Numbered from the stretch's first letter, positions 5,554 through 63,577 are shown. The stretch is DNA of 64,000 nt from Candidatus Pelagibacterales bacterium (GCA_004213215.1 SHAO01000001.1:687-64686); one strand, 5' to 3'. Translations and numbers: made by a program. Notes: generated from the letters alone by a model not told the origin.

Positions 5554-7783
<2,230 letters not shown>

Positions 7784-8842: not shown

Positions 8843-10062
8843 CGAGAAGAGTTGTAATTACAGGAATTGGAATTGTATCGTGTATTGGAAATAACCAAAA
8901 AGAAGTATTGGATTCATTGTTGAATACAAAATCAGGTATTGTTTTTTCAGAAGATCACAAAAAATATAATTTTAGAAGCCAAGTAGTAGGAAGTATAAAG
9001 AATTTAAATTTATCTGATCATATCGACAGAAAAAAAATGAGATTTATGGGAGACGGTTCTGCTTATAATTATATTTCAATGGCAGAAGCAATAAAAGATT
9101 CTGGATTAGAAGAAAAAAGTATAAGTAATGAAATGACTGGAATTATTATGGGTTCTGGTGGACCTTCAATAAAAAATGTTGTTTTGGCTGTAGATGCAAC
9201 TAGAGAATCGGGTCCTAAAAAAATGGGACCTTGTATTGTTCCAAGAACAATGTCGAGCACAAATTCTGCAACTCTTGCAGTACCTTTTAAAATTAAAGGT
9301 ATTAATTATTCAATAAGCTCCGCTTGTGCAACGAGCGCTCACTGCATAGGAAACGGAATGGAACTAATTCAATATGGAAAGCAAGATATAATTTTTGCTG
9401 GTGGTGGTGAAGAATTAAATTGGGGAATGTCTGGAATGTTTGATGCTATGACTGCTTTGTCCTCAAAATACAATGATACGCCTGAGAAAGCATCAAGACC
9501 CTACGACAAAGACAGGGATGGGTTTATAATTGCTGGCGGAGCTGGAGTTTTAGTTCTTGAAGAATATGAACATGCAAAAGCGCGTGGAGCTAAAATTTAT
9601 GCAGAATTAACAGGATATGGCGCAACCTCAGATGGATATGATATGGTTGCCCCGTCAGGAGAAGGTGCAGCAAGATGTATGAATATGGCTTTAAAGACAG
9701 CTATAAATAAAAGAGTTGATTATATTAATAGTCATGGAACTTCTACACCAGTCGGTGATGTGAAAGAGCTTGAAGCAATACAAAGCGTGTTTAAAGATAA
9801 TATTCCTAAAATAAGTTCAACAAAATCCTTAACTGGACATTCATTAGGAGCTACATCAGTTCAAGAAGCTATTTACTGCTTATTAATGATGAAAAATAAG
9901 TTTATATCTGCTTCAGCTCATATTGAAAATATGGATGATAAAGCAAAAAATTTTCCAATTGTTACAAAAGTAGAAAAAGAAAAAGAACTTAATAGTATTA
10001 TGTCAAACAGCTTTGGTTTTGGTGGGACTAACGCAACATTACTATTTGAAAAAATAAATTAA
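8839..10062 (+). CDS. fabB: 3-oxoacyl-ACP synthase I
   Basis: Motifs [24 protein letters not shown] and [11 protein letters not shown]. Its start overlaps the fabA stop. Confidence 0.88.
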
Positions 10063-44891: not shown

Positions 44892-45890
44892 TTAAAACGC
44901 TAGTGACACAGATAATACTGTATTATCTCTGTCGTATGCAGCTCCTGTGTTGTAGTCCATGTTATCAGCTTGACCTTCTGCTAATCTTATAGATGCTCCA
45001 CCCATAGAGTAAGCAATCTGGAAAGACGTAGCTTCTGCTGTAACATTTGTACTATTTGTTTGCTCTGATTCATAATGGTTGTAACCAACAGATAAATCAT
45101 CGTTTATAGCAAACGTTATACCGTAGCCATCGTTGTCATATTGTTGAGCTCCAGTAGTTGTACCAAGATCTTCTTCAGACCACTGGTAACCAACTGTAAG
45201 ACCACCAATTGCATACGTAGCGTATACAGTTTGTTCTTCAATGTCTCCAGCAGGAACGTTTCTGTTAGACATACCAGCACCAACTGTCAAACCTGACATG
45301 CCAGTTATAGCATCGCTAACAACTACAGTTACATCGTAACCATTACCATGGTTTCCTGATGCGTAACCTGAGTATCCTTTATCGTTACTAGCACTTCCTG
45401 TATGATCAGGTGTGTAAGCCACTCTAGCAGTGATACCATCTGGTAACATGTTAGGTGTCCATTCGATATTAGTACTTCCAGAAACACCACCAACTGTATT
45501 TATTCCAGTTGAAAGTCCTGTAGCATAAGCTTCTTCCCATACATTAGGTGTAACATCATCCATACGGTCAATACCTGAACCGCTAACACCATGACTTATT
45601 CTTAAGTCACCGATAGCTGGAATTGTTACTACTACGTTAGTGTTTGAATATGCCATTTGGTTTGTAGCTGCTATTGTAAGAGCAACACCCCAACCGTTAT
45701 CAAGCTCTCCAGAGCCAGATAAACTATAGTTAGAACCTATACCTATAGGGTTACCAGTGATCTCATCATCCATTGAGATCCATGTCATATCAACACCACC
45801 ACTTGCTGATAGTTCACCTGCATTAGCAGACGAAACTGCAGCTAGAGATCCGCAAAGAGCAGAAACTCCTAGTTTAGTTAATTTATTCAT
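44892..45890 (-). CDS. Porin-like outer-membrane beta-barrel protein
   Basis: I set the start at MNKLTKLGVSALCGSLAAVSSANA (M48 of the track ORF), which is preceded by a strong AAAAGGAG Shine-Dalgarno sequence. Alternating beta-strand pattern and C-terminal ...SVSLAF. Confidence 0.75.
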   Translation of the reverse strand: MNKLTKLGVSALCGSLAAVSSANAGELSASGGVDMTWISMDDEITGNPIGIGSNYSLSGSGELDNGWGVALTIAATNQMAYSNTNVVVTIPAIGDLRISHGVSGSGIDRMDDVTPNVWEEAYATGLSTGINTVGGVSGSTNIEWTPNMLPDGITARVAYTPDHTGSASNDKGYSGYASGNHGNGYDVTVVVSDAITGMSGLTVGAGMSNRNVPAGDIEEQTVYATYAIGGLTVGYQWSEEDLGTTTGAQQYDNDGYGITFAINDDLSVGYNHYESEQTNSTNVTAEATSFQIAYSMGGASIRLAEGQADNMDYNTGAAYDRDNTVLSVSLAF

Positions 45891-46115
45891 AATTATATTC
45901 TCCTTTTTATTATTATTATTCATATGAATGGTCGTAAAATAACACTCCAAACACTCAAAAAAATTTAAAAATCCATATAATACAGTTATTTTTGCAATAT
46001 GTGGTATTATTACAACACTTATAATAACCATTAAATAAATAGCGTTTTTATTAAGTTTTTTGCATTTTTTAAAGTAATTTCCAAATGATAATTAATGTAT
46101 TAAATATATAAAGGT

Positions 46116-55105: not shown

Positions 55106-56437
55106 CTACTTACCTATGCAGAAATCATTAAAAATTGAGCCTAATAACTCCTCTACATCTACTTTTCCAACGATCATTCCGAGGTGTCGTGTAGCTAATC
55201 TTAAATCTTCAGCAGCTCTATCGAAATCATTAACCAATTTTTTCTTTTGAAATTTTTCTAAATGATGCATGCAATTAATTAAATTTTGTCTATGTCTTTC
55301 TCGAGTTATTAAAATATCTTCAGTAGTTGTAAATTTGTTTTTTAATTTACTTTTTATTTTTGAAATTAGTTTATTTAAATTTAAATCTTTTTTAATAGAA
55401 ATTAAAACATGCTCATATTTTTTAAATTTACTATTTGACTTGCCTGTTACTAAATCTGATTTATTTAACACTAAAATAGCATTTTTCGTTAATAAGTTCC
55501 TCAAAACACTAGAAAAATCAACCTTTTTAGCTGAAACTATAATTAGTCTTAAATCAGCATCTTCTGCACGTTTTAAAGCTATTTTTATTCCTTTTTTCTC
55601 TATTTCATTTTTTGAACTTCTTATTCCTGCTGTATCTGAAACAATTACTGGATATCCATCAAGATTAAGATGAGTTTCAATTACATCTCTTGTTGTTCCT
55701 GCAATTTCAGAAACTATCGCAGCATCTCTCTTTGAGAGATAATTTAATAAGCTTGATTTTCCTGAGTTGGGTGGTCCGATAATTGCTATTTTAAAACCTT
55801 CTCTTATTCTTTCGCCAACCTTTTGATCATTTAAAGTTTTTTTAATTTCATGTAGAACACCGTTTGATATTTTTTGTATTCCTTTAATAATATTTTTAGG
55901 CAAATCTTCATCGGGGAAATCAATCTTTGCTTCGACGTGAGATAAAATTTTTAAAAGTTTCTCTCTCCACGAATTAAATTTATCTGATGATTTTCCACTC
56001 ATAACTTTAAGAGCTTGTTTTCTCTGAATTTCCGTTTCTGCTGAAATTAAATCAGAAATGCTTTCAGCTTTTAATAAATTTATTCTTCCGTTTTGAAATG
56101 CACGTTTAGTGAACTCTCCTGGCTCTGCTAAACGACAATTTTTTACTTTTGATATTGCTAAATGCATTGCATTTATTACTGCCCTGCTACCGTGGACATG
56201 GAATTCTGCTAAATCCTCACCTGTGTAGCTATTTGGGGCGGGAAACCATATAATTACTCCCTCGTCAATCAGATCTTTTCCCCCATTTTTATTGAACTTT
56301 TTAAGGGTAGCCATTCTTGGGCGTGGTAATTTTGATCCTGTCAATTTTTTTATTACTTTTGCTGTGTTTTTTCCTGAAACTCTAATTACAGCTATCCCTG
56401 ATATACCGGGACCAGATGATAAAGCATATATAGTCAT
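55106..56437 (-). CDS. mnmE: tRNA modification GTPase MnmE (TrmE)
   Basis: GPPNSGKSSLLN and DTAGIR GTPase motifs and a C-terminal CIGK. Confidence 0.95.
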   Translation of the reverse strand: MTIYALSSGPGISGIAVIRVSGKNTAKVIKKLTGSKLPRPRMATLKKFNKNGGKDLIDEGVIIWFPAPNSYTGEDLAEFHVHGSRAVINAMHLAISKVKNCRLAEPGEFTKRAFQNGRINLLKAESISDLISAETEIQRKQALKVMSGKSSDKFNSWREKLLKILSHVEAKIDFPDEDLPKNIIKGIQKISNGVLHEIKKTLNDQKVGERIREGFKIAIIGPPNSGKSSLLNYLSKRDAAIVSEIAGTTRDVIETHLNLDGYPVIVSDTAGIRSSKNEIEKKGIKIALKRAEDADLRLIIVSAKKVDFSSVLRNLLTKNAILVLNKSDLVTGKSNSKFKKYEHVLISIKKDLNLNKLISKIKSKLKNKFTTTEDILITRERHRQNLINCMHHLEKFQKKKLVNDFDRAAEDLRLATRHLGMIVGKVDVEELLGSIFNDFCIGK

Positions 56438-56439
56438 TA

Positions 56440-58110
56440 TTAATTAAACCAAGAATATTTATCTCCATATTTATTTAATAATTTTCTATAGGGCAAATAT
56501 CTATCTAGTGAATGTTTTTGAATCGCGCTTCTAATTTGCAAATTGCTAGTAGTTTTTGAAATTAAATCTTTTCTTTTATAGAATTCTAGACACTTCTTAT
56601 CCCATGGCAATCCACAAAATTCCATTAGTTTTTTGGATTCATTTTCAGGTTCAAGACATAATTTTTCTAAACTCAAATCATATATAAGATTAGGAAAAAT
56701 CTTATTATTGTTTTTAACAAACTTATAATAAATATCAAAATATTTAAAAATATGATCCAAATCATGAGCCCACGGTACATTTGGTAAATTATTTTTTAAA
56801 ATCGACATAATGGAAGCAAGCGGTTCTCTTTTACAATTGATAATCTTTGAGAGTGGAAATATATCTTTAATCAATCTTATATAAAAAAAATTATCTAAGG
56901 TTTTGTCTGTAAAAATATAATTCGTATTTTGTTTTATAATATTTTTTTCTCGGTATCGTTCAATTAGATCTTTTCTCATATCACTTAACTTGGAATATAT
57001 AGCTTTTTGCTGAATGATTTTTTGTTTTACAAAGCTACTTATTATTCCAGTTTCTTCACCTATAGCTATATGTTGTGAACCTGAAGCAATTATCTTTTCT
57101 ACCAGTGTAGAACCACATCTTGGTACTCCAATTATAAAAATAGGAGCAAAACTATCCTTCTCAATTTCTATATTTTTATTTTTTATATCTGAATTATTTA
57201 ATTCTTTATTTTTGGGCAACATATTTAGCCAATATTCAACATCTTTCCTGTAATGTTCTTTTTCAGACAGTAAATAATAGCTATGTCCCTTTAATAAATA
57301 ATTAAATTCTTTATCATAATTTTTTGATTTCAATTCATATTTAGATAGTAAAAAATTTCCGTAGGATAAATTTTGGTTTCTAGAATTATTTTTCATTTTA
57401 ACTTCATTTATCTTTTTTTTTAAATTTTCGTCTAAACTTTTTTTATCTAAATCACTTAAAGCATAATGATGTGACAAATTTTCATGGTCATATTGTATTG
57501 CTAATTTATAATGCTTAATTGCTTGCTCTTTTTCTCCTAGCATTACATTTAATTTTCCAAGATTTTTATATGCATCTACTGCATTAGGCTTGATCTTGCT
57601 TAATTTTTCATAACAATTTATTGCTTTTTTAATTTCACCTAAGTCTTCTAAAACTAATGCAAGATTGTGATAAGCACTAAAATTACTCGGTTCTAATGAT
57701 ATGGCTTTTTTACAAGCATCTGCGGCCTCTTTTAACTTACCCAATTCTTTTAATGCAGCTCCAAGGTTGCTATACGCAAAAGAATTATTAGATTGGATTG
57801 ATATAGCTTTTTTACAAGCATCCGCAGCCTCATCAGGTTTACCTAATTCTTTTAGTACAGCTCCAAGATTTGCGTAAGCAACATCATAATTAGGCTCAAT
57901 ATGTATTATTTTTTCAAATAGATTTTTTGCTAAACTATAGTTTTTAGTCTGAGCCGACAATGACGCCAAATAAAAAATTGAATTAAAATGGTTGGGATCT
58001 TTCTTTAATACTTTATTATAAAATTTTTCTGCAGATTTAAAATCATTTTTTTTATGGCTTTCCAGCGCTAAGGAAAAGTTTTCTTCAATATTTAATTTTT
58101 TTTTTTCCAT
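56440..58110 (-). CDS. TPR-repeat protein fused to a PAPS-type sulfotransferase domain (ST1)
   Basis: About 6 N-terminal TPR units. The C-terminal domain has the 5'-PSB-like loop IIGVPRCGSTLVEKII, then ...TDKTLDNFFYIRLIKDIFP...INCKREP and a conserved tail KTTSNLQIRSAIQKHS. It ends 2 nt before the mnmE start. Confidence 0.75.
   Translation of the reverse strand: MEKKKLNIEENFSLALESHKKNDFKSAEKFYNKVLKKDPNHFNSIFYLASLSAQTKNYSLAKNLFEKIIHIEPNYDVAYANLGAVLKELGKPDEAADACKKAISIQSNNSFAYSNLGAALKELGKLKEAADACKKAISLEPSNFSAYHNLALVLEDLGEIKKAINCYEKLSKIKPNAVDAYKNLGKLNVMLGEKEQAIKHYKLAIQYDHENLSHHYALSDLDKKSLDENLKKKINEVKMKNNSRNQNLSYGNFLLSKYELKSKNYDKEFNYLLKGHSYYLLSEKEHYRKDVEYWLNMLPKNKELNNSDIKNKNIEIEKDSFAPIFIIGVPRCGSTLVEKIIASGSQHIAIGEETGIISSFVKQKIIQQKAIYSKLSDMRKDLIERYREKNIIKQNTNYIFTDKTLDNFFYIRLIKDIFPLSKIINCKREPLASIMSILKNNLPNVPWAHDLDHIFKYFDIYYKFVKNNNKIFPNLIYDLSLEKLCLEPENESKKLMEFCGLPWDKKCLEFYKRKDLISKTTSNLQIRSAIQKHSLDRYLPYRKLLNKYGDKYSWFN
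57923..57990. repeat. 68-nt segment about 93% identical to 59840-59907 (copy A, in ST1)
   Basis: Hand alignment gives 63/68 identical, including an exact 29-mer GACAATGACGCCAAATAAAAAATTGAATT. It encodes HFNSIFYLASLSAQTKNYS in both proteins. Confidence 0.85.
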
Positions 58111-58122
58111 TTTAAAATTATG

Positions 58123-60027
58123 TTAATGCACTTTCTTTCTTACCCAAAAATTATACATACCGATAAAAGTTTTAGGTTCTAAATTCTCAAATTTATCCCA
58201 ATTTTCTAATAAAATATTTTTTTTATCCTCTGGAAATTGCTTTGAATATTTATTTTTAATTTTTTCATTAGCAAAACCTAAAAATTCTAAATCAAAATCT
58301 TTTATTATTTTAGAAATTTGAGGTAAATTAAACCTATGCTCTTGGACGTGGAATATTAAATCTCTAGCTGATGAAATTGTATAAAAGTCTGTTCTATTAA
58401 TAATTTCTTTCAATATTTTATCTTCTTTTTTGTTTATGATTGATCTTCTACAATCTCTAATACCTTCTGGACTACTGTTAAATTTATTTTTTTTAATAAA
58501 TTCTCTTGCATGAACAATATGTTTTCTTGCTTTTTCACTATATAAACCAAGTTTTATAACACCATGAGGTTCTAATAAATTTAATAAAATTTTTAAACCT
58601 TTTATAGGATCTTTCATATGATGAAGGACTCCGGCGCATTCTATTACATCAAACTTCTTTGTTAATTTATGAAGGCTTAATATATCAGCATGTAGATACT
58701 CTATATTTTTAAAACACAGCTCATCCGTTTTCCTTTTAGCATAAGCTAAGCTTGATAAACTTAGGTCAATTGCAAGAATTTCAGAGTTTAGATAGTCTTT
58801 TGCAATACAAACGTGTCGTCCAGTACCACAACCTGCCACAAGAACTTTTGGTCTCTCAAATTTATTTTTTATTGCAATTTTATTTGGTTTAATTTGATAG
58901 TCTAGTTTTGTTAAAAAGGGTAATTCTACTTGGCTGTAGGTATATCTCCATCTCGGAAACGGATTTTGTTCATATTGTTCCTTAACTTTTAAAGAAACTT
59001 TATCAGAAATTTCATTTAATGATTTAATTGAATTTATTAAATTTTTTTCTTTTGCTGGTTCATTTATTTGCATACTAATTAAGTCATTAAATAAAATATT
59101 TTTTGATTTATAGTTAGCTAATTTTTTTAAAATATTTTTTAAAGAGTGAAGAGGTAAATAAGATCCTAAAATAGCTATTTCCATTTCATTAATCTTTTCT
59201 TTTTTTTCTACTGTTTGAATTAGTTTATTCACTACATCAATTTCTTTTTTAGTTTGAAAGAAAACATACTCATTAAAAAAACACTGCTGTGATAAAGATA
59301 TTACAAATTTTAAATTATTAAATATGGTATTTTCTTTAGAGCTATCTATATTTAATAATATTTCACATCTAATCTTGGTTAATGTTTCTTCTAAAAATAA
59401 ATCTTCAACAATAGATTTTTGCAGAATTAAAAGAAAAAGTTCTTCACTTAGCAAATCTTGAATGATTGAATTTTTCAATAAAGGTATACTTAGGTTTATT
59501 TTATCAAAATATTGATTATATTTTTTTTCTGAAAATAAAACAAATTTTGCAAAATTAAAAATATCAGTATGATTAATATCATTACGTCTAAAAAGTATTA
59601 GAAGTAATGATTTTAAATAAGAATGATCTTTGTTTTTAAGATTCATTTGACGTAAATCTGTAGACCTTAAAAAAACTGCTAGATTGTTTTTAGCATTCGT
59701 ATCATTTGGATTAATTTCTGTTGCATTCTGAAATGAAATCAGCGCGGCGCGGTGGTCACCCAACTGTAATGATATAGCTCCTAAGTTATTATGTGCTGAA
59801 AAATTATTAGGCTGAATTGCAACTGCTTTTTCATATAAATTTTTTGCTTCACTATAGTTTTTAGTTTGAGCTGACAATGACGCCAAATAAAAAATTGAAT
59901 TGAAATGAGAAGAATTTATTTTTAATATTTTTTTATATAATTTTTCAGCTTCTACAAAATTATTTTCTTTATGATTTTTAATAGCTAAACTGAAAATTTT
60001 ATCTACATTAACATCATCTGTGGTCAT
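58123..60027 (-). CDS. TPR-repeat protein fused to a class I SAM-dependent methyltransferase domain (MT)
   Basis: N-terminal TPR units, a ~250-aa middle region with no motif I recognise, a QYEQNPFPRW motif, then motif I VLVAGCGTG with DLSLSSLAYA and ...FDVIECAGVLHH. Confidence 0.75.
   Translation of the reverse strand: MTTDDVNVDKIFSLAIKNHKENNFVEAEKLYKKILKINSSHFNSIFYLASLSAQTKNYSEAKNLYEKAVAIQPNNFSAHNNLGAISLQLGDHRAALISFQNATEINPNDTNAKNNLAVFLRSTDLRQMNLKNKDHSYLKSLLLILFRRNDINHTDIFNFAKFVLFSEKKYNQYFDKINLSIPLLKNSIIQDLLSEELFLLILQKSIVEDLFLEETLTKIRCEILLNIDSSKENTIFNNLKFVISLSQQCFFNEYVFFQTKKEIDVVNKLIQTVEKKEKINEMEIAILGSYLPLHSLKNILKKLANYKSKNILFNDLISMQINEPAKEKNLINSIKSLNEISDKVSLKVKEQYEQNPFPRWRYTYSQVELPFLTKLDYQIKPNKIAIKNKFERPKVLVAGCGTGRHVCIAKDYLNSEILAIDLSLSSLAYAKRKTDELCFKNIEYLHADILSLHKLTKKFDVIECAGVLHHMKDPIKGLKILLNLLEPHGVIKLGLYSEKARKHIVHAREFIKKNKFNSSPEGIRDCRRSIINKKEDKILKEIINRTDFYTISSARDLIFHVQEHRFNLPQISKIIKDFDLEFLGFANEKIKNKYSKQFPEDKKNILLENWDKFENLEPKTFIGMYNFWVRKKVH
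59840..59907. repeat. 68-nt segment about 93% identical to 57923-57990 (copy B, in MT)
   Basis: See copy A. Weaker similarity continues for about 12 nt on the low-coordinate side. Confidence 0.85.
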
Positions 60028-60029
60028 TA

Positions 60030-61796
60030 TTAATTAAACCAAGGGTATTTTTTTCCGTATCTACCCAACATTTTTTTATAGGGTAAATATTTATCTAAAG
60101 AATGTTTATATACAGCTTGTCTGATTTGAAGATTGCTTGTTGTTTTAGAAAACATATCTTTTCTCTTATAAAATTCTAAGCATTTTTTATTCCATGGCAA
60201 TTCACAAAATTGCATTAATTTTTTAGATTCTTCTTCAGGGTTTTTAATTAATTTTTCATATTGTAATTCATATATGAAATTAGGATTTTCCAAATTAAAA
60301 GTCTCTATAGCTTTTAAATAGTTATCAATATATTTAAATATATTATCTAGATCATGCGCCCATGCTAATTCTGTTAGATTATTCTGAAAAATTGACATTA
60401 TCGAGGATGAAATATCTCTTTTACAGTTTATTATTTTAGCATGAGGAAAAATTTCTTTTATTAATTTCAAATAGAAAAAATTATTTAAAGACTTATCAGT
60501 AAAAATATTATCATATTTTTCTAGAAGCAATCCTCTCTTTGAATAAATCTCTGATATTTCATCTCTAATTTTTTCTGCACTACCTAAATTTAGAGACTGT
60601 TTTTTTAATATCTTAGCAGTTACAAACTCTTCTAGAACAGAAGTTTCTTCTCCCATAGCTAAATTTTGTTCACCAGATCCAATTATCTTTTCAACTAAAG
60701 TTGAACCACATCTTGGGACGCCAACTATAAAAATTGGTTTTATTTTTTTTTTGTCTTTTTCAATTAATTTTTCTAATTTAATATCCTCTGCTATTTGAAG
60801 TGTATCTCTAAAGGTATATTTAAGCAGCAACTCGAATCTATTTTTTTGCATCTCAAAAAAACTTGCATGTCCTTTTTTTAAAAAAGTTAACTCTTTTTCA
60901 TAATTTTTAACTTTCTGTTCATACTTTGATAATAAAAAATTTCCATACGTAATGTTAATTTTTGGAGTATTTTTTTTTTCAATAATTTTTTCTACTTTGT
61001 TTTTTAGATCATCATTTAAAATATCCTTTTTTAAATTACTTAAATAAAAATAATTTACTAAATTTTCTGGCTCATACTTTATTGCATTTTCATATGATTG
61101 GATTGCTCCTTCAAAATTTCCTAGATCTTTTAACACCAAGGCTAAATTATTATGAGCATTTACGTAGTTTTTTTTAATCGCAATTGCTTTTTCATAAGAA
61201 CTTATGGCATTTTTAAAGTCATTTATAATTCTAAAAACTAGACCTAGGTTATTATGTGCGCTTACTAAATTATAATTTATTTTAATGGCTTGTTGGTAAT
61301 TGCTTATTGCCTTTTCATACTGTTTCAAATCTGCATAAAGATTGCCCAATACAAAAAAAGGAAGGGCAAAATCTGGCTGTAACTCGGTTGTTTTTTCAAG
61401 GTAAGCTTTAGCTTCTTTTAATTGCCTTGAATCATAACTAATTGCACCAAGATTATAATATGCATTTGCATTATTAGGATTAATTTTTATTGCTTTTTTG
61501 TAATAACTTACAGCATTTTTCATCTCCCCTAATTCTTTACAGACGGTTCCAAGATTATTTAATGCACTCAAATTTTCAGGCTGCGTTTCAATTACCTCAA
61601 CTAAAAGCTTTTTAGTTTTTATAAAATCTTTATTTTTTGCTGATATATTTGCTAAAAGAAGTTTTGATTGGATAAAGTTAGGATCAATACTAAGTATTTT
61701 ATAACATAAGGTTTCGGCTGCCTCAAAACTTCCTTTTTTATAATTATCATAGGCAGTATTATAAGTATCCTTTAATGTTGTAGTATTTTTTTCCAT
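60030..61796 (-). CDS. TPR-repeat protein fused to a PAPS-type sulfotransferase domain (ST2), paralog of ST1
   Basis: About 8 TPR units. The sulfotransferase loop IVGVPRCGSTLVEKII and the tail KTTSNLQIRQAVYKHS closely parallel ST1. It ends 2 nt before the MT start. Confidence 0.75.
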   Translation of the reverse strand: MEKNTTTLKDTYNTAYDNYKKGSFEAAETLCYKILSIDPNFIQSKLLLANISAKNKDFIKTKKLLVEVIETQPENLSALNNLGTVCKELGEMKNAVSYYKKAIKINPNNANAYYNLGAISYDSRQLKEAKAYLEKTTELQPDFALPFFVLGNLYADLKQYEKAISNYQQAIKINYNLVSAHNNLGLVFRIINDFKNAISSYEKAIAIKKNYVNAHNNLALVLKDLGNFEGAIQSYENAIKYEPENLVNYFYLSNLKKDILNDDLKNKVEKIIEKKNTPKINITYGNFLLSKYEQKVKNYEKELTFLKKGHASFFEMQKNRFELLLKYTFRDTLQIAEDIKLEKLIEKDKKKIKPIFIVGVPRCGSTLVEKIIGSGEQNLAMGEETSVLEEFVTAKILKKQSLNLGSAEKIRDEISEIYSKRGLLLEKYDNIFTDKSLNNFFYLKLIKEIFPHAKIINCKRDISSSIMSIFQNNLTELAWAHDLDNIFKYIDNYLKAIETFNLENPNFIYELQYEKLIKNPEEESKKLMQFCELPWNKKCLEFYKRKDMFSKTTSNLQIRQAVYKHSLDKYLPYKKMLGRYGKKYPWFN

Positions 61797-61852
61797 TATA
61801 ATATTATTTAATATATTTAATTTTTTCTATTTTTGATATCTTTATATAAGAA

Positions 61853-62299
61853 ATGATAAGCAAAATATCAATTAAAACTAGAGTAGGTTGGATATCAGTT
61901 TTTGAAAAAAAAGGTAAAATATTTAAAATAATATTTGGTAGAACAAAAAACCAAAATAAAAGTAAAATTCTAGATAATTTTAAAAAAAACTTATTTAAAT
62001 TTTTTAACAAAAAAACATCTTATATTAGAGCGCCACATATAATGAGTGGAGATACAATTCAAAAAAAAGTTTGGAATGAATTAAAAAAAATTAAATTAGG
62101 AAATACAAAAAGTTATGGGCAAATAGCAAAAAAATATAAATTATCACCTAGACATGTTGGCAAAATATGTGGCAAGAATAAGCTTTTGTTATTAGTTCCA
62201 TGTCACAGAGTTATAAGATCTAACGGAGCTTTAGGTGGCTTTACGTCTATCGGTGGAATAAAATTAAAAAGAAAATTATTAGAGTTTGAAAAAAAATAA
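61853..62299 (+). CDS. ogt: Methylated-DNA--protein-cysteine methyltransferase (Ogt/Ada C-terminal type)
   Basis: PCHRV active site, with YGQIAKKY...SPRHVG and GGIKLKRKLLEFE. Confidence 0.88.
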   Translation: MISKISIKTRVGWISVFEKKGKIFKIIFGRTKNQNKSKILDNFKKNLFKFFNKKTSYIRAPHIMSGDTIQKKVWNELKKIKLGNTKSYGQIAKKYKLSPRHVGKICGKNKLLLLVPCHRVIRSNGALGGFTSIGGIKLKRKLLEFEKK

Positions 62300-62302
62300 T
62301 AT

Positions 62303-63577
62303 TTATTTTGCTGGTTTATTCATCGAAACAAAAAAATCAACATTATTTTTTGTATTTCTGAGTTTAGAAAGAAGGAATTCAATTGCATCCATTGTACCCA
62401 TTGAACTTAAAATTTTTCTTAAAACATTCATTTTAAGCAAATCATCGTTTTTAAAAAGCAATTCTTCTCTCCTTGTCCCAGATCTTGTTATATCAATCGC
62501 TGGGAAAATTCTTTTATCGGAGATTTTACGGTCAAGAATTAATTCGCTATTACCAGTTCCTTTAAATTCTTCAAAAATTACTTCGTCCATTCTGGATCCA
62601 GTATCTATTAGTGCGGTCGAAATTATTGTTAAAGATCCTCCTTGCTCAATATTTCTTGCTGCACCAAAAAATCTTTTTGGTCTTTGTAGAGCGTTTGCAT
62701 CAACCCCTCCTGTTAAAACTTTACCTGAACTAGGTATAACTGCATTATAAGCTCTCCCAAGTCTAGTTATTGAATCTAAAAGTATAATTACATCTTTTTT
62801 ATGCTCTGTTAATCTTTTGGCTTTTTCTATAACCATTTCAGCTACTGCTACGTGTCTGGAAGCTGGCTCGTCAAATGTCGAACTAATCACTTCGCCTTTA
62901 ACAGACCTTTGCATGTCCGTTACTTCTTCTGGCCGTTCATCTATAAGTAATACCATTAAATAACATTCTGGATGATTTTGTGCCAGTGAATGTGCAATGT
63001 TTTGTAATATAATTGTTTTACCTGCTTTTGGTGGTGAAATAATTAAAGATCGTTGACCTTTTCCAATAGGACTTACCAAATCAATTAGTCTGGCTGTTTG
63101 ATCTGGTTTTTTTTCCACTTTCGTTACTTCAACTTCCATTTTGAGTTGCTTGTCTGGATAAAGTGGAGTTAAATTGTCAAAAGCAATTTTATTTTTAGCT
63201 TTTTCTGGATTATCAAAATTTATTTTATCTACTTTCAAAAGAGCAAAATATCGCTCTTGAGCCTTTGGAGCTCTAATTTCACCTTCAACTGAATCTCCTG
63301 TTCTCAATCCAAATTTTCTTATTTGACTTGGACTAACATAAATATCGTCTGGCCCCGGTAAGTAATTAGATTCTATAGCCCTTAAAAAACCGAAACCATC
63401 CTGCAATACTTCGAGGACTCCCCCTCCAGTTATTTGTTCATTATTTTGTGCTAGTTTTTTTAATATCGCAAATAATATTTCATTCTTTCTTAATGTGCTT
63501 GGATTTTCTATTTCCAACTTTTCAGCTTGTATAATAAGCTCAGCGGGTGATTTCTTTTTTAATTCTACTAAATTCAT
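62303..63577 (-). CDS. rho: Transcription termination factor Rho
   Basis: N-terminal RNA-binding domain ([14 protein letters not shown]), Walker A PPKAGKT and 424 aa. Confidence 0.96.

Follow-up and report, generated by a model that had tools for sequence, protein, structure and literature searches.

TPR-fused sulfotransferase and methyltransferase genes in the variable rho–mnmE slot of a Pelagibacterales genome

Gene arrangement between rho and mnmE

A stretch of 64,000 nucleotides from a Candidatus Pelagibacterales bacterium (GCA_004213215.1 SHAO01000001.1:687-64686), referred to here as the window, was analysed. Two TPR-sulfotransferase genes (ST1, ST2) and one TPR-methyltransferase gene (MT) lie between rho and mnmE, together with ogt. 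The features are as follows, by position in the window.

55106–56437, minus strand: mnmE, downstream flank
56433–56453, minus strand: ST2→mnmE junction, downstream copy of an identical 21-nt string
56440–58110, minus strand: ST2, TPR-sulfotransferase, 556 aa (ORF call, Pfam)
56443–57144, minus strand: TPST-like domain of ST2, residues 323–556
57478–58089: six TPRs of ST2, followed by a helical linker
58123–60027, minus strand: MT, TPR-methyltransferase, 634 aa (ORF call, Pfam, AF2 model)
58126–58992: PKMT/Rv2067c-like class I SAM methyltransferase domain of MT, residues 346–634
58993–59652: conserved, all-helical mid-domain of MT, residues 126–345
59662–60006: about 3.5 TPRs of MT
60023–60043, minus strand: ST1→MT junction, upstream repeat copy, CTTGGTTTAAT-TAA-TA-ATG-AC (stop, 2 nt, start)
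60030–61796, minus strand: ST1, TPR-sulfotransferase, 588 aa (ORF call, Pfam)
60033–60737, minus strand: Sulfotransfer_3/TPST-like domain of ST1, residues 354–588
61062–61775: seven TPRs of ST1 (residues about 8–245), followed by a helical linker
61797–61852: ST1/ogt divergent intergenic region, 56 bp, AT-rich
61853–62299, plus strand: ogt, methylated-DNA-protein-cysteine methyltransferase, 148 aa, part of the lineage-specific insert
62303–63577, minus strand: rho, upstream flank of the variable slot

ORF calling reproduced exactly the three minus-strand ORFs of a preliminary description of this DNA, with gaps of 2 nt (ST1-MT), 12 nt (MT-ST2) and 2 nt (ST2-mnmE). The downstream order mnmE-mnmG-rsmG-parA-parB was likewise seen in the window, and Pfam labels on an orthologous contig agreed. 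The rest of the window had been described as housekeeping; KatG and a porin are also encoded there. The 21-nt exact direct repeat at the ST1→MT and ST2→mnmE junctions lies within a 271-nt repeat, D1, whose copies (60015–60285 and 56425–56695) are 76% identical at a spacing of 3590; the repeats bracket a 3590-bp MT-ST2 module. In comparison with the orthologous contig all three ORFs were found to be under purifying selection (dN/dS 0.14–0.17) and are thus real genes. The GC content of the cassette is below that of its flanks. As GC3 resembles the flanks, the low GC could be attributed to amino-acid composition.

The rho–mnmE junction as a recombination hotspot

The rho|mnmE interval was surveyed in 69 Pelagibacteraceae species genomes. 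In 28 of them rho abuts mnmE, and varied cargo was found in the other 41: Sulfotransfer_1 genes in 17 loci, TPR-GT41 fusions in 14 species genomes other than that of the window, TPR-ST in 12, TPR-MT in one, and further genes such as a 2OG-Fe(II) oxygenase (L089). Depending on the lineage the slot holds 0, 1, 2, 3 or 4 genes, some of them on the opposite strand. Several lineages carry an MT→ST pair, whereas the trio is restricted to one sub-lineage and is missing from all 69 species representatives. Related arrays are present at L006–L010, L011, L099 and L108, and 3′-end relics of ST genes at L024 and L026. ogt occupies the slot in 8 of the 69 loci; these form the closest clade and are all eight loci whose mnmE is 84–90% identical to that of the window. 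ST1 is orthologous (54–62% identity) to a single 588-aa TPR-ST at the same spot in sister lineages, and among proteins of this locus ST2 comes closest to L011_STb (56%) and L019 (49%); ST1 would be an older resident of the site.

The rho|mnmE junction of Pelagibacteraceae is thus a recombination hotspot with interchangeable cargo. The cassette plus ogt had been described as an insertion into a core block. This holds in so far as rho and mnmE are otherwise contiguous, but the insert belongs to a hotspot and not to a single event. That the combination is special or unique is not supported: both architectures fall in very large, widespread families. The TPR-ST and TPR-MT architectures are uncharacterised. 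Other core genes, too, have small slots of this kind between them, filled by the same guild of TPR-ST, TPR-MT, TPR-GT41 and stand-alone Sulfotransfer_1 genes; its members also co-locate elsewhere (L095–L097), and many other loci have a lone ST, MT or GT41 paralogue. Like the SAR11 hypervariable regions or flexible genomic islands, the slot has strain-variable content between core flanks, a GC below the genome mean and an enrichment in sulfotransferases and methyltransferases. The hypervariable regions are large and rRNA-linked, whereas the slot is tiny (0–4 genes) and carries no sugar-pathway genes. The passages of Wilhelm 2007 and of the 'Pelagibacter, resolved' 2026 preprint that term searches brought up contain no mention of the rho|mnmE slot.

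The insertion also affects mnmE. A TATAAT element just upstream of mnmE was present in 55 of 69 loci that lack an abutting ST and in 0 of 14 loci that have one (Fisher p=1.5e-8), and mnmE of the window lacks this conserved proximal element. The insert has displaced the mnmE −10 element, so mnmE depends on read-through from the array. No terminator-like site was found between the 56-bp ST1/ogt region and mnmE. The proposed co-transcription with mnmE is supported to this extent, and these sequence features make a single transcript of array and mnmE very probable. Upstream of the array the 56-bp region is the one gap without coding sequence, and an ST1-MT-ST2-mnmE transcript probably starts there. 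Read-through into mnmE looks like a by-product of insertion with no functional link, and it lends no support to a target in translation; as the slot cargo is variable and includes opposite-strand genes, adjacency to mnmE marks where insertions are tolerated.

Sulfotransferase and methyltransferase domains

Pfam searches supported the predicted folds of all three proteins. ST1 matched TPR_1 (9e-41) and Sulfotransfer_3 (7e-28), and ST2 the same families (2e-35 and 3e-25), with Sulfotransfer_3 bit scores of 98.8 and 90.1 against a gathering cutoff of 27. The PAPS-type loop VPRCGSTLVEKII is present in both translations. The two proteins align from end to end at 45% identity, with an indel of one TPR (34 aa). 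In profile searches against the PDB, the ST domain matched TPST1 (6e-12) and TPST2 (2e-7), and the next family, the CurM ST, at just 7e-5; with few Sulfotransfer_3 structures in the PDB, TPST is nearest partly by default, and the identity is remote, at about 20%. The 5′-PSB loop (GVPRxGxT; GVPRCGST in ST, GVPRSGTT in TPST1), the GEET segment (IGEET with CGEET), the catalytic Lys (TDK with NKD) and the R...S 3′-PB motif (CKRxxxxSIMS with VRDGRASVHS) align. R331, S334, T335, E352, E353, K403, R428 and S436 are invariant in 50 of 50 ST paralogues. The catalytic roles of the GEET Glu and of the Lys are assigned after published structural work on TPST2.

The Sulfotransfer_3 fold is common to ST1, ST2, TPST1/TPST2 and RaxST of Xanthomonas oryzae. 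Neither the eukaryotic TPSTs, which are type II membrane proteins of the Golgi, nor RaxST are known to carry TPRs. The SAR11 enzymes differ from the TPSTs in being cytoplasmic and in adding 6–7 TPRs and a conserved helical linker of about 85–110 aa. No signal peptide or TM segment was found in the cassette proteins. For want of a hydrophobic segment (maximum Kyte-Doolittle 19-residue mean 1.24–1.37), and hence of the membrane-anchored lumenal topology, ST1 and ST2 are best classed as TPST-like rather than as TPST orthologues. With RaxST there is a precedent for sulfation of protein or peptide tyrosines in the bacterial cytoplasm (PMC4646787, PMC4892823). When the ST AF2 model was used in a fold search, the TPR part dominated the matches. 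At TPR position 6, at least 92% of 50 paralogues have an Asn (N81, N115, N149, N183), as an Asn ladder for client binding in the TPR lumen would require; TPRs in general have Asn as the consensus here, however, and the residue is therefore not diagnostic. Two or three TPR-ST units are also found fused in a single polypeptide, which shows that tandem units act together. Assimilatory sulfate genes are incomplete in SAR11, which weighs against a ready supply of PAPS. cysC was not found in 1.7 Mb of sequence, a sample that is uninformative on this point.

MT matched TPR and Methyltransf_31/25/12/11 profiles (1e-16 to 8e-14), with residues of about 130–380 left without Pfam annotation. Its translation contains the class I SAM motif VLVAGCGTG, and 48 homologues all keep G399-G403, D421, D448 and D460, in line with a SAM-binding core of GxGxG motif and acidic post-I residue. 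With the STs it shares the N-terminal TPR module alone (50% identity to ST2, 35% to ST1). The best PDB profile matches were the M. tuberculosis H3K79 methyltransferase Rv2067c (8hkr, 2e-23) and the Rickettsia OmpB lysine methyltransferases PKMT2 (7e-15) and PKMT1 (1e-9), the similarity to PKMT being remote (about 20% identity). The match spans Rv2067c residues 17–256, that is, the catalytic domain and the large dimerisation subdomain (LSD, residues 163–230 in the Rv2067c structure paper), and includes a common GVLHH(M/L)xDP motif; it ends before the SSD/CTD of Rv2067c, whose C-terminal domain was not matched. The AF2 model of MT (pLDDT 89.8) gave the same result: Rv2067c was the top fold match (E 9e-10, rmsd 3.6 A, 249 columns), and PKMT1/2 came next among the catalytic-domain matches (Foldseek). 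MT thus has in common with Rv2067c and PKMT1/2 the class I SAM fold with an adjoining helical dimerisation (substrate-trough) subdomain, but it has in addition an N-terminal TPR array and a helical mid-domain of about 220 aa, both absent from Rv2067c and PKMT1/2. An OmpB or histone-like client is known for PKMT/Rv2067c; none is known for MT. The TPR parts of the ST and MT models matched the TPR domains of OGT and SPINDLY first, and the TPR-containing capsule polymerase 8qoy was among the fold matches of the MT model.

Two mutually unrelated homologues outside SAR11 with the TPR-mid-MT organisation lie directly upstream of flagellin genes, one in the order fliW-MT-flagellin-fliD (L131) and the other followed directly by a flagellin N-domain (L147). 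These neighbourhoods lend indirect support to a protein substrate. SAR11 bacteria are not known to have flagella, and so this clue does not carry over directly.

Proposed mode of action and alternative explanations

The three proteins are best read as modular, cytoplasmic, TPR-guided protein-modifying enzymes in the rho|mnmE hotspot, with read-through into mnmE as a side effect; we put the probability of this reading at roughly 0.55. ST1, MT and ST2 would be soluble enzymes, each with a TPR superhelix of the OGT/SPINDLY type at the N-terminus, then a helical adaptor particular to its family and last a C-terminal catalytic head. By analogy the TPR array would hold a protein client, on which the ST head would sulfate a hydroxyl, most likely of tyrosine, and the MT head would methylate lysines. 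The genes would be cargo of the slot, modular and without a fixed three-part machine. The mode of action would follow that of OGT, SPINDLY and the flagellin glycosyltransferase FlmG, in which an N-terminal TPR superhelix is likewise fused to a C-terminal transferase; in FlmG the TPR domain is necessary and sufficient for binding of the flagellin substrates (PMC7591256). Those enzymes transfer glycosyl groups, whereas sulfuryl (ST1, ST2) and methyl (MT) transfer is predicted here, and Pfam found no GT41/GT-B domain in the three window proteins, which would thus be analogues and not members of that group. MT and ST2 have TPR modules that are 50% identical and are found together repeatedly as an MT→ST pair, and therefore probably act on the same client. 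That a common target could be a protein, as suggested earlier, is plausible, as the nearest relatives of both heads modify proteins. Architecture, homology, conservation of catalytic residues, purifying selection, variability of the hotspot and displacement of the promoter are shown; the protein nature and the identity of the substrate are inferred. As had been noted before, no substrate gene was identifiable nearby, either in the window or at related SAR11 loci, which weighs against the protein-modifying reading. TPR domains also occur in polysaccharide enzymes such as the 8qoy polymerase, which weighs against the same reading.

It is possible, with a smaller probability, that the enzymes instead sulfate and methylate LPS, capsule or exopolysaccharide, with the TPRs as a scaffold to the assembly complex and with variation serving evasion of phages or grazers, as in SAR11 hypervariable region 2. 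The variation of slot cargo between strains, the 8qoy match and the glycosyltransferase genes (GT2/GT4/GT9 or GT1) that adjoin some paralogues (L001, L097) are consistent with such tailoring. Passages of the 'Pelagibacter, resolved' 2026 preprint describe many sulfotransferases and glycosyltransferases for surface polysaccharide in SAR11 hypervariable regions, and passages of Wilhelm 2007 name, among the SAR11 genes that are never syntenic, a SAM methyltransferase and a gene with a sulfotransferase domain. However, the nearest relatives of the catalytic heads are enzymes that modify proteins, not carbohydrate sulfotransferases or sugar O-methyltransferases, and no glycosyltransferase, sugar-nucleotide or export gene was found in or beside the cassette. 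The third guild member at the slot is GT41, of the O-GlcNAc-transferase family, and the flagellin genes next to MT homologues also argue against a glycan.

Tailoring of a small molecule or of a ribosomal or non-ribosomal peptide metabolite appears improbable. TPST-related sulfotransferases and methyltransferases do occur in bacterial peptide and metabolite tailoring clusters (PMC2938197), and dioxygenase-sulfotransferase-methyltransferase neighbourhoods were described by Iyer et al. 2010. PhyH-type dioxygenases are found adjoining a TPR-ST at L005 and two genes upstream of rho at L006, and the L089 oxygenase fits the same pattern. The cassette itself, however, with its gaps of 2–56 nt, encodes neither a precursor peptide nor an NRPS/PKS, a transporter or a dioxygenase, and small-molecule enzymes seldom carry long TPR arrays. 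The streamlined SAR11 genomes are not noted for secondary metabolism, which also weighs against this explanation. The preliminary description had favoured one three-part machine, possibly acting on the translation apparatus. That ST1-MT-ST2 form one obligate complex, co-regulated with mnmE/mnmG and modifying that apparatus, now seems very unlikely. The 2-nt stop/start junctions and the lost −10 element of mnmE fit a common transcript, and the TPR module common to MT and ST2 a shared client. The empty sites and the unrelated combinations elsewhere, opposite-strand genes included, the absence of the trio from the species representatives and the paralogues standing singly argue against both the obligate complex and the translation target; from a common pool, the MT→ST pair alone recurs. 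Nothing ties these families to ribosomal proteins, tRNA or translation factors.

The idea that the cassette represents a mobile module for anti-phage defence or the remnant of a prophage is the least probable of all. A variable slot between core genes, the GC below the flanks and a weak PADLOC match of MT to mad2 (2.6e-12), plus generic TPR matches, could be so interpreted. The PADLOC and PHROG matches are confined to generic TPR or Rossmann regions, no partner genes of PADLOC defence systems were found, and integrase, tRNA and mobile-element repeats are absent at the cassette. Among 2.9 million viral contigs, just one carries a gene for a relative. The flank-like GC3 attributes the low GC to amino-acid composition, and the cassette genes have co-diverged with their flanks under purifying selection.

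The rho-mnmE junction as a recombination slot

Three minus-strand genes for TPR-fused transferases lie immediately 5′ of mnmE-mnmG-rsmG-parA-parB, and on the opposite side of the trio are ogt (plus strand) and rho (minus strand). Their positions, strand and spacing (2, 12 and 2 nt along ST1-MT-ST2-mnmE) agree with the preliminary description, as do the proposed folds in a Pfam profile search.

60030-61796, minus strand: ST1, 588 aa, TPR array and Sulfotransfer_3 (Pfam 7e-28)
58123-60027, minus strand: MT, 634 aa, TPRs and class I methyltransferase models (Pfam 1e-16 to 8e-14)
56440-58110, minus strand: ST2, 556 aa, TPR array and Sulfotransfer_3 (Pfam 3e-25)

The ogt product is a genuine methylated-DNA-protein-cysteine methyltransferase. 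Residues ~130-380 of MT carry no Pfam annotation, and no signal peptide or membrane segment was found in ST1, MT or ST2. ST1 and ST2 are paralogous over their full length and one 34-residue TPR apart; the part that MT has in common with them is the N-terminal TPR module only (50% identity to ST2, 35% to ST1). A recent tandem duplication giving rise to ST1 and ST2 is rejected, since the two are 45% identical and each is nearer to genes of other lineages. The cassette genes and their flanks diverged together, the genes being under purifying selection (dN/dS 0.14-0.17).

To survey the junction, mnmE with 10-kb flanks was taken from species-representative genomes. Among the 80 Pelagibacteraceae loci obtained, 69 contained both rho and mnmE.

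Contents of the rho-mnmE interval in 69 Pelagibacteraceae loci
rho abutting mnmE (<=120 bp): 28/69
One stand-alone Sulfotransfer_1 (~280 aa), opposite strand: 11/69
Two stand-alone Sulfotransfer_1: 1/69
TPR-GT41 and Sulfotransfer_1: 5/69
TPR-GT41 (O-GlcNAc-transferase family) alone, either strand: 6/69
TPR-GT41 as two split ORFs: 1/69
Two TPR-GT41: 2/69
Divergent TPR-ST alone: 5/69
ogt and TPR-ST (588 aa): 5/69
Extra gene, ogt and TPR-ST: 2/69
GATase, ogt and TPR-MT: 1/69
2OG-Fe(II) oxygenase (locus L089): 1/69
260-bp gap, no ORF: 1/69

The abutting arrangement bears out the earlier proposal that the trio plus ogt is an insertion into a core block. The varied contents argue against a single insertion event and make the junction a hotspot. 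The ST-MT-ST trio itself occurs in none of the 69 loci. It was found in the window and in the orthologous marine contigs L006-L010 (78-86% protein identity, same junctions), and in contig L099 with an extra 549-aa TPR protein upstream. Since the MT-to-ST order is seen in the trio loci and also in L108 (rho-MT-ST-mnmE) and L011 (rho-MT-ST-ST-mnmE), it is the recurring unit. The orthologue of ST1 is the single 588-aa TPR-ST of a sister clade (54-62% identity). Between the window and L006, dS is 0.39 for MT and about twice as high for its neighbours (0.65-1.36), which hints that this gene may have been exchanged more recently between the two lineages.

A 271-nt direct repeat of 76% identity (56425-56695 and 60015-60285) flanks the 3590-bp MT-ST2 module on both sides. 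The core of the repeat is the exact 21-nt CTTGGTTTAATTAATAATGAC, present at the ST2-mnmE junction (56433-56453) and at the ST1-MT junction (60023-60043), where it covers the stop, the 2-nt gap and the start in both cases. This repeat is a possible recombination footprint, with ~12 of its 21 nt constrained by the conserved WFN-stop codons. ST 3′-end relics (...SWFN*, ...PWFI*) lie directly 5′ of mnmE in two loci devoid of an intact ST (L024 ~9960-10000 and L026 ~400-444) and thus point to deletions at the slot. Together, repeat and relics are consistent with genes being gained and lost through recombination between conserved ST 3′ ends and within the core flanks. The window has no tRNA gene, and neither an integrase nor a mobile-element repeat is evident at the locus. 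The cassette is most aptly viewed as cargo that a small recombination slot carries in this lineage, drawn from a widespread guild of TPR-fused transferases. Whatever the function of its cargo, rho|mnmE is a clean, compact recombination slot in a streamlined genome.

The GC content of the cassette is 0.25-0.26 against 0.31-0.35 in the flanks. As GC3 is similar, the low value reflects protein composition (K/N/I-rich), and a foreign origin is unsupported by it. A defence or phage origin was rejected, PADLOC and PHROGs giving generic matches only, with a single viral contig match.

Transcription into mnmE

The element upstream of mnmE was compared across loci L012-L091. Of 69 loci with no ST abutting mnmE, 55 have a TATAAT at most 45 nt upstream of the start codon; in 42 of these 55 exactly 6 nt separate its end from the ATG, and the sequence is often TTGAAGYTATAAT. 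Such an arrangement suggests that the mnmE mRNA has no leader or a very short one. The element is seen in 0 of 14 loci in which a TPR-ST abuts mnmE (Fisher p=1.5e-8 against 55/69), and it is likewise missing from the window (56438-56480). No terminator-like site was found within the array by a consensus scan, itself uninformative in this AT-rich DNA (fewer promoter and terminator matches than in shuffles). The ST1-MT and ST2-mnmE junctions both read stop-TA-start. Co-transcription with mnmE, suggested earlier from the tight spacing, is therefore well supported by the absence of TATAAT, the lack of a terminator-like site and the form of the junctions. The array transcript likely starts in the 56-bp gap between ogt and ST1 (61797-61852). 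Insertion at rho|mnmE has rewired the transcription of an essential tRNA-modification gene.

Catalytic heads, TPR arms and their relatives

Domain-only profiles were made from diverse homologues and searched against the PDB. The top matches of the ST-unit profile are tyrosylprotein sulfotransferases only (TPST1 6e-12, TPST2 2e-7), and the next family is the CurM ST (7e-5). The ST 5′-PSB loop GVPRCGST aligns with GVPRSGTT of TPST, and the GEET segment, the (T)DK lysine and the R...S 3′-phosphate motif fall on their TPST counterparts; none of these positions varies among the 50 paralogues. The MT-head profile finds Mycobacterium tuberculosis Rv2067c best (8hkr, 2e-23, residues 17-256), and also matches Rickettsia PKMT2 (7e-15) and PKMT1 (1e-9). 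In Rv2067c, a protein lysine methyltransferase, the substrate trough is similar to the one in the PKMTs, whose target for methylation is OmpB (PMC10739865). A fold search with the AF2 model of MT (pLDDT 89.8, pTM 0.88) again places Rv2067c at the top (E 9e-10, rmsd 3.6 Å, 249 columns), with PKMT1/2 as the next catalytic-domain matches. Because of these TPST and Rv2067c/PKMT matches, in sequence and in the MT fold, the ST and MT heads are nearest to protein-modifying enzymes, the similarities being remote.

The TPR parts of the ST2 (pLDDT 91.8) and MT models match the TPR superhelices of OGT and SPINDLY first, and the modelled N-termini resemble the arms with which OGT-type enzymes bind their clients. 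With the full-length ST2 model, Foldseek results are dominated by TPR matches and say nothing on the catalytic domain. Both the MT mid-domain (residues 126-345) and the linker of ST are conserved and wholly helical, and neither carries a database annotation.

The cassette architecture is common and is annotated generically. Word-indexed searches returned thousands of relatives of ST and MT, the named ones being labelled Candidatus Pelagibacter, generic TPR protein or generic methyltransferase, several from Tara ocean data. Their lengths step by ~34 residues, and the number of TPRs therefore varies. An exhaustive ST-unit profile search gave 5,508 clusters (50% identity) at E<=1e-30 and 25,428 at E<=1e-3; in most of them the unit is C-terminal, after a TPR-sized extension. 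Two to six TPR-ST units are joined in tandem in single polypeptides of 900-2000 aa, up to 2800 aa (P0268, P0279 and P0343 among them). These are natural fusions of what the window holds as separate neighbouring genes. A metagenome scan with the MT profile found proteins with the same TPR-mid-domain-MT build on contigs of 39-72% GC, from bacteria far from SAR11, so the architectures are not SAR11 inventions. A further operon-like row of three TPR-fused proteins lies on a 74% GC contig (L179, 1271-7817): a 975-aa TPR-PKMT-like MT, a 600-aa TPR protein with a C-terminus that is GT9-like by eye, and a 587-aa protein with TPRs and TylF/Methyltransf_24. Arrays of TPR-fused tailoring enzymes are thus not restricted to SAR11 either.

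Paralogues of ~50% identity also occur singly between unrelated core genes. In the interval from ftsK to a pterin dehydratase gene, one TPR-ST adjoins a stand-alone Sulfotransfer_1 that is divergent, and a TPR-GT41 overlaps a TPR-ST downstream of tsaD. Such scattered paralogues, pairings and fused multi-unit polypeptides favour a guild of modular enzymes with a common process over an obligate three-part complex. The single three-part machine envisaged in the preliminary description is not upheld, its trio being absent from the species loci.

PhyH-type or 2OG-Fe(II) dioxygenase genes were seen near several family members or in the slot (L005 8576-9400, L006 1014-1841, and L089). They are reminiscent of the dioxygenase-sulfotransferase-methyltransferase neighbourhoods for which a role in protein modification has been predicted (Iyer et al. 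2010, PMC2938197). SAR11 has many PhyH paralogues, and this proximity may therefore be chance.

Immediately 5′ of a flagellin gene, a TPR-mid-MT homologue was found in two unrelated non-SAR11 metagenome contigs:

L131, 1141-10364, 66% GC: fliW-MT-flagellin-fliD
L147, 8001-9852, 50% GC: MT directly upstream of flagellin

Each has a PKMT-like methyltransferase and is a candidate flagellin lysine methyltransferase. A word-indexed search with the flagellar-locus MT gave two true homologues amid TPR-only matches, neither beside flagellin, and flagellin was the only recurrent partner found for the high-GC MT homologues. These flagellin-linked genes, from high-GC bacteria of culturable type, offer a tractable and directly testable way into MT-family function. 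To our knowledge, SAR11 has no flagella, which qualifies the clue. Literature searches found no paper on this type of flagellin lysine methyltransferase, no experimental paper on a TPR-ST or TPR-MT fusion, and nothing relevant on a SAR11 TPR-sulfotransferase, bacterial TPR tyrosine sulfation, a Pelagibacter OGT or a TPR flagellin lysine methyltransferase.

Probable targets of the enzymes

We favour, at slightly better than even odds (about 0.55), the reading that ST1, ST2 and MT are TPR-guided protein-modifying enzymes. The TPR arm would hold a protein client, onto which the ST head would move sulfate from PAPS and the MT head methyl from SAM. The homologies of the heads, the flagellin-linked MTs, the true TPR-GT41 fusions of the OGT family that fill the same slot in other genomes, and the FlmG precedent support a protein target. 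In FlmG, an experimentally established case of TPR-guided client binding, the TPR domain is necessary and sufficient for flagellin binding (PMC7591256). The logic would be that of OGT, SPINDLY and FlmG, with a TPST-like or PKMT-like head instead of a glycosyltransferase. There are real caveats: polysaccharide enzymes have TPRs too, and some paralogues adjoin glycosyltransferases. Tailoring of a surface glycan or lipid is the less likely alternative. That the trio is one machine acting on the translation apparatus is very improbable. As the cargo of the slot differs between genomes and frequently lies on the other strand, the preferred reading of co-transcription with mnmE is that it results from insertion and gives no clue to the substrate.

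A further extension of the protein-target reading is rather unlikely. SAR11, the ocean's most abundant bacterium, might carry a strain-variable, combinatorial protein code of tyrosine O-sulfation, lysine methylation and O-GlcNAc-type glycosylation, written by interchangeable TPR-guided enzymes in small recombination slots among the core genes. Its clients would be abundant proteins, either exported or of the envelope (porin, pilin, binding proteins), that receive their modification in the cytoplasm before export, and enzyme swaps would diversify the surface against phages and grazers. As far as we know, bacterial protein tyrosine sulfation has so far been described only from Xanthomonas RaxST; if the code exists, tyrosine sulfation would be a widespread bacterial modification. 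If the heads act on proteins, they would represent a large unstudied bacterial PTM layer, with >5,500 clusters (50% identity) for the ST unit alone, and, if this holds, one built on the TPR-plus-head logic of eukaryotic OGT. A sharp physiological question would follow, as SAR11 is unable to assimilate sulfate but would require PAPS; no match to cysC (APS kinase) was found in 1.7 Mb, a sample made up of the flanks of selected loci only. A large TPST-like family in bacteria, and in a sulfate-non-assimilating organism, would, if confirmed, be surprising.

Two other genes of the window were recorded. A gene for a Porin_4 outer-membrane porin (44892-46031, minus strand, 379 aa) lies in its most GC-rich part (38%). 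The product is likely to be plentiful in the envelope, which would make it, as pure speculation, one conceivable client of PKMT- or TPST-like enzymes. The gene katG (5554-7746, minus strand) encodes a 730-aa catalase-peroxidase, matched by the Pfam peroxidase model at 2.3e-70 in two stretches; the DNA there has 34-36% GC, the window mean being 29%. The gene katG is often said to be missing from cultured SAR11 and from other streamlined marine bacteria, and its presence and composition here may merit attention.
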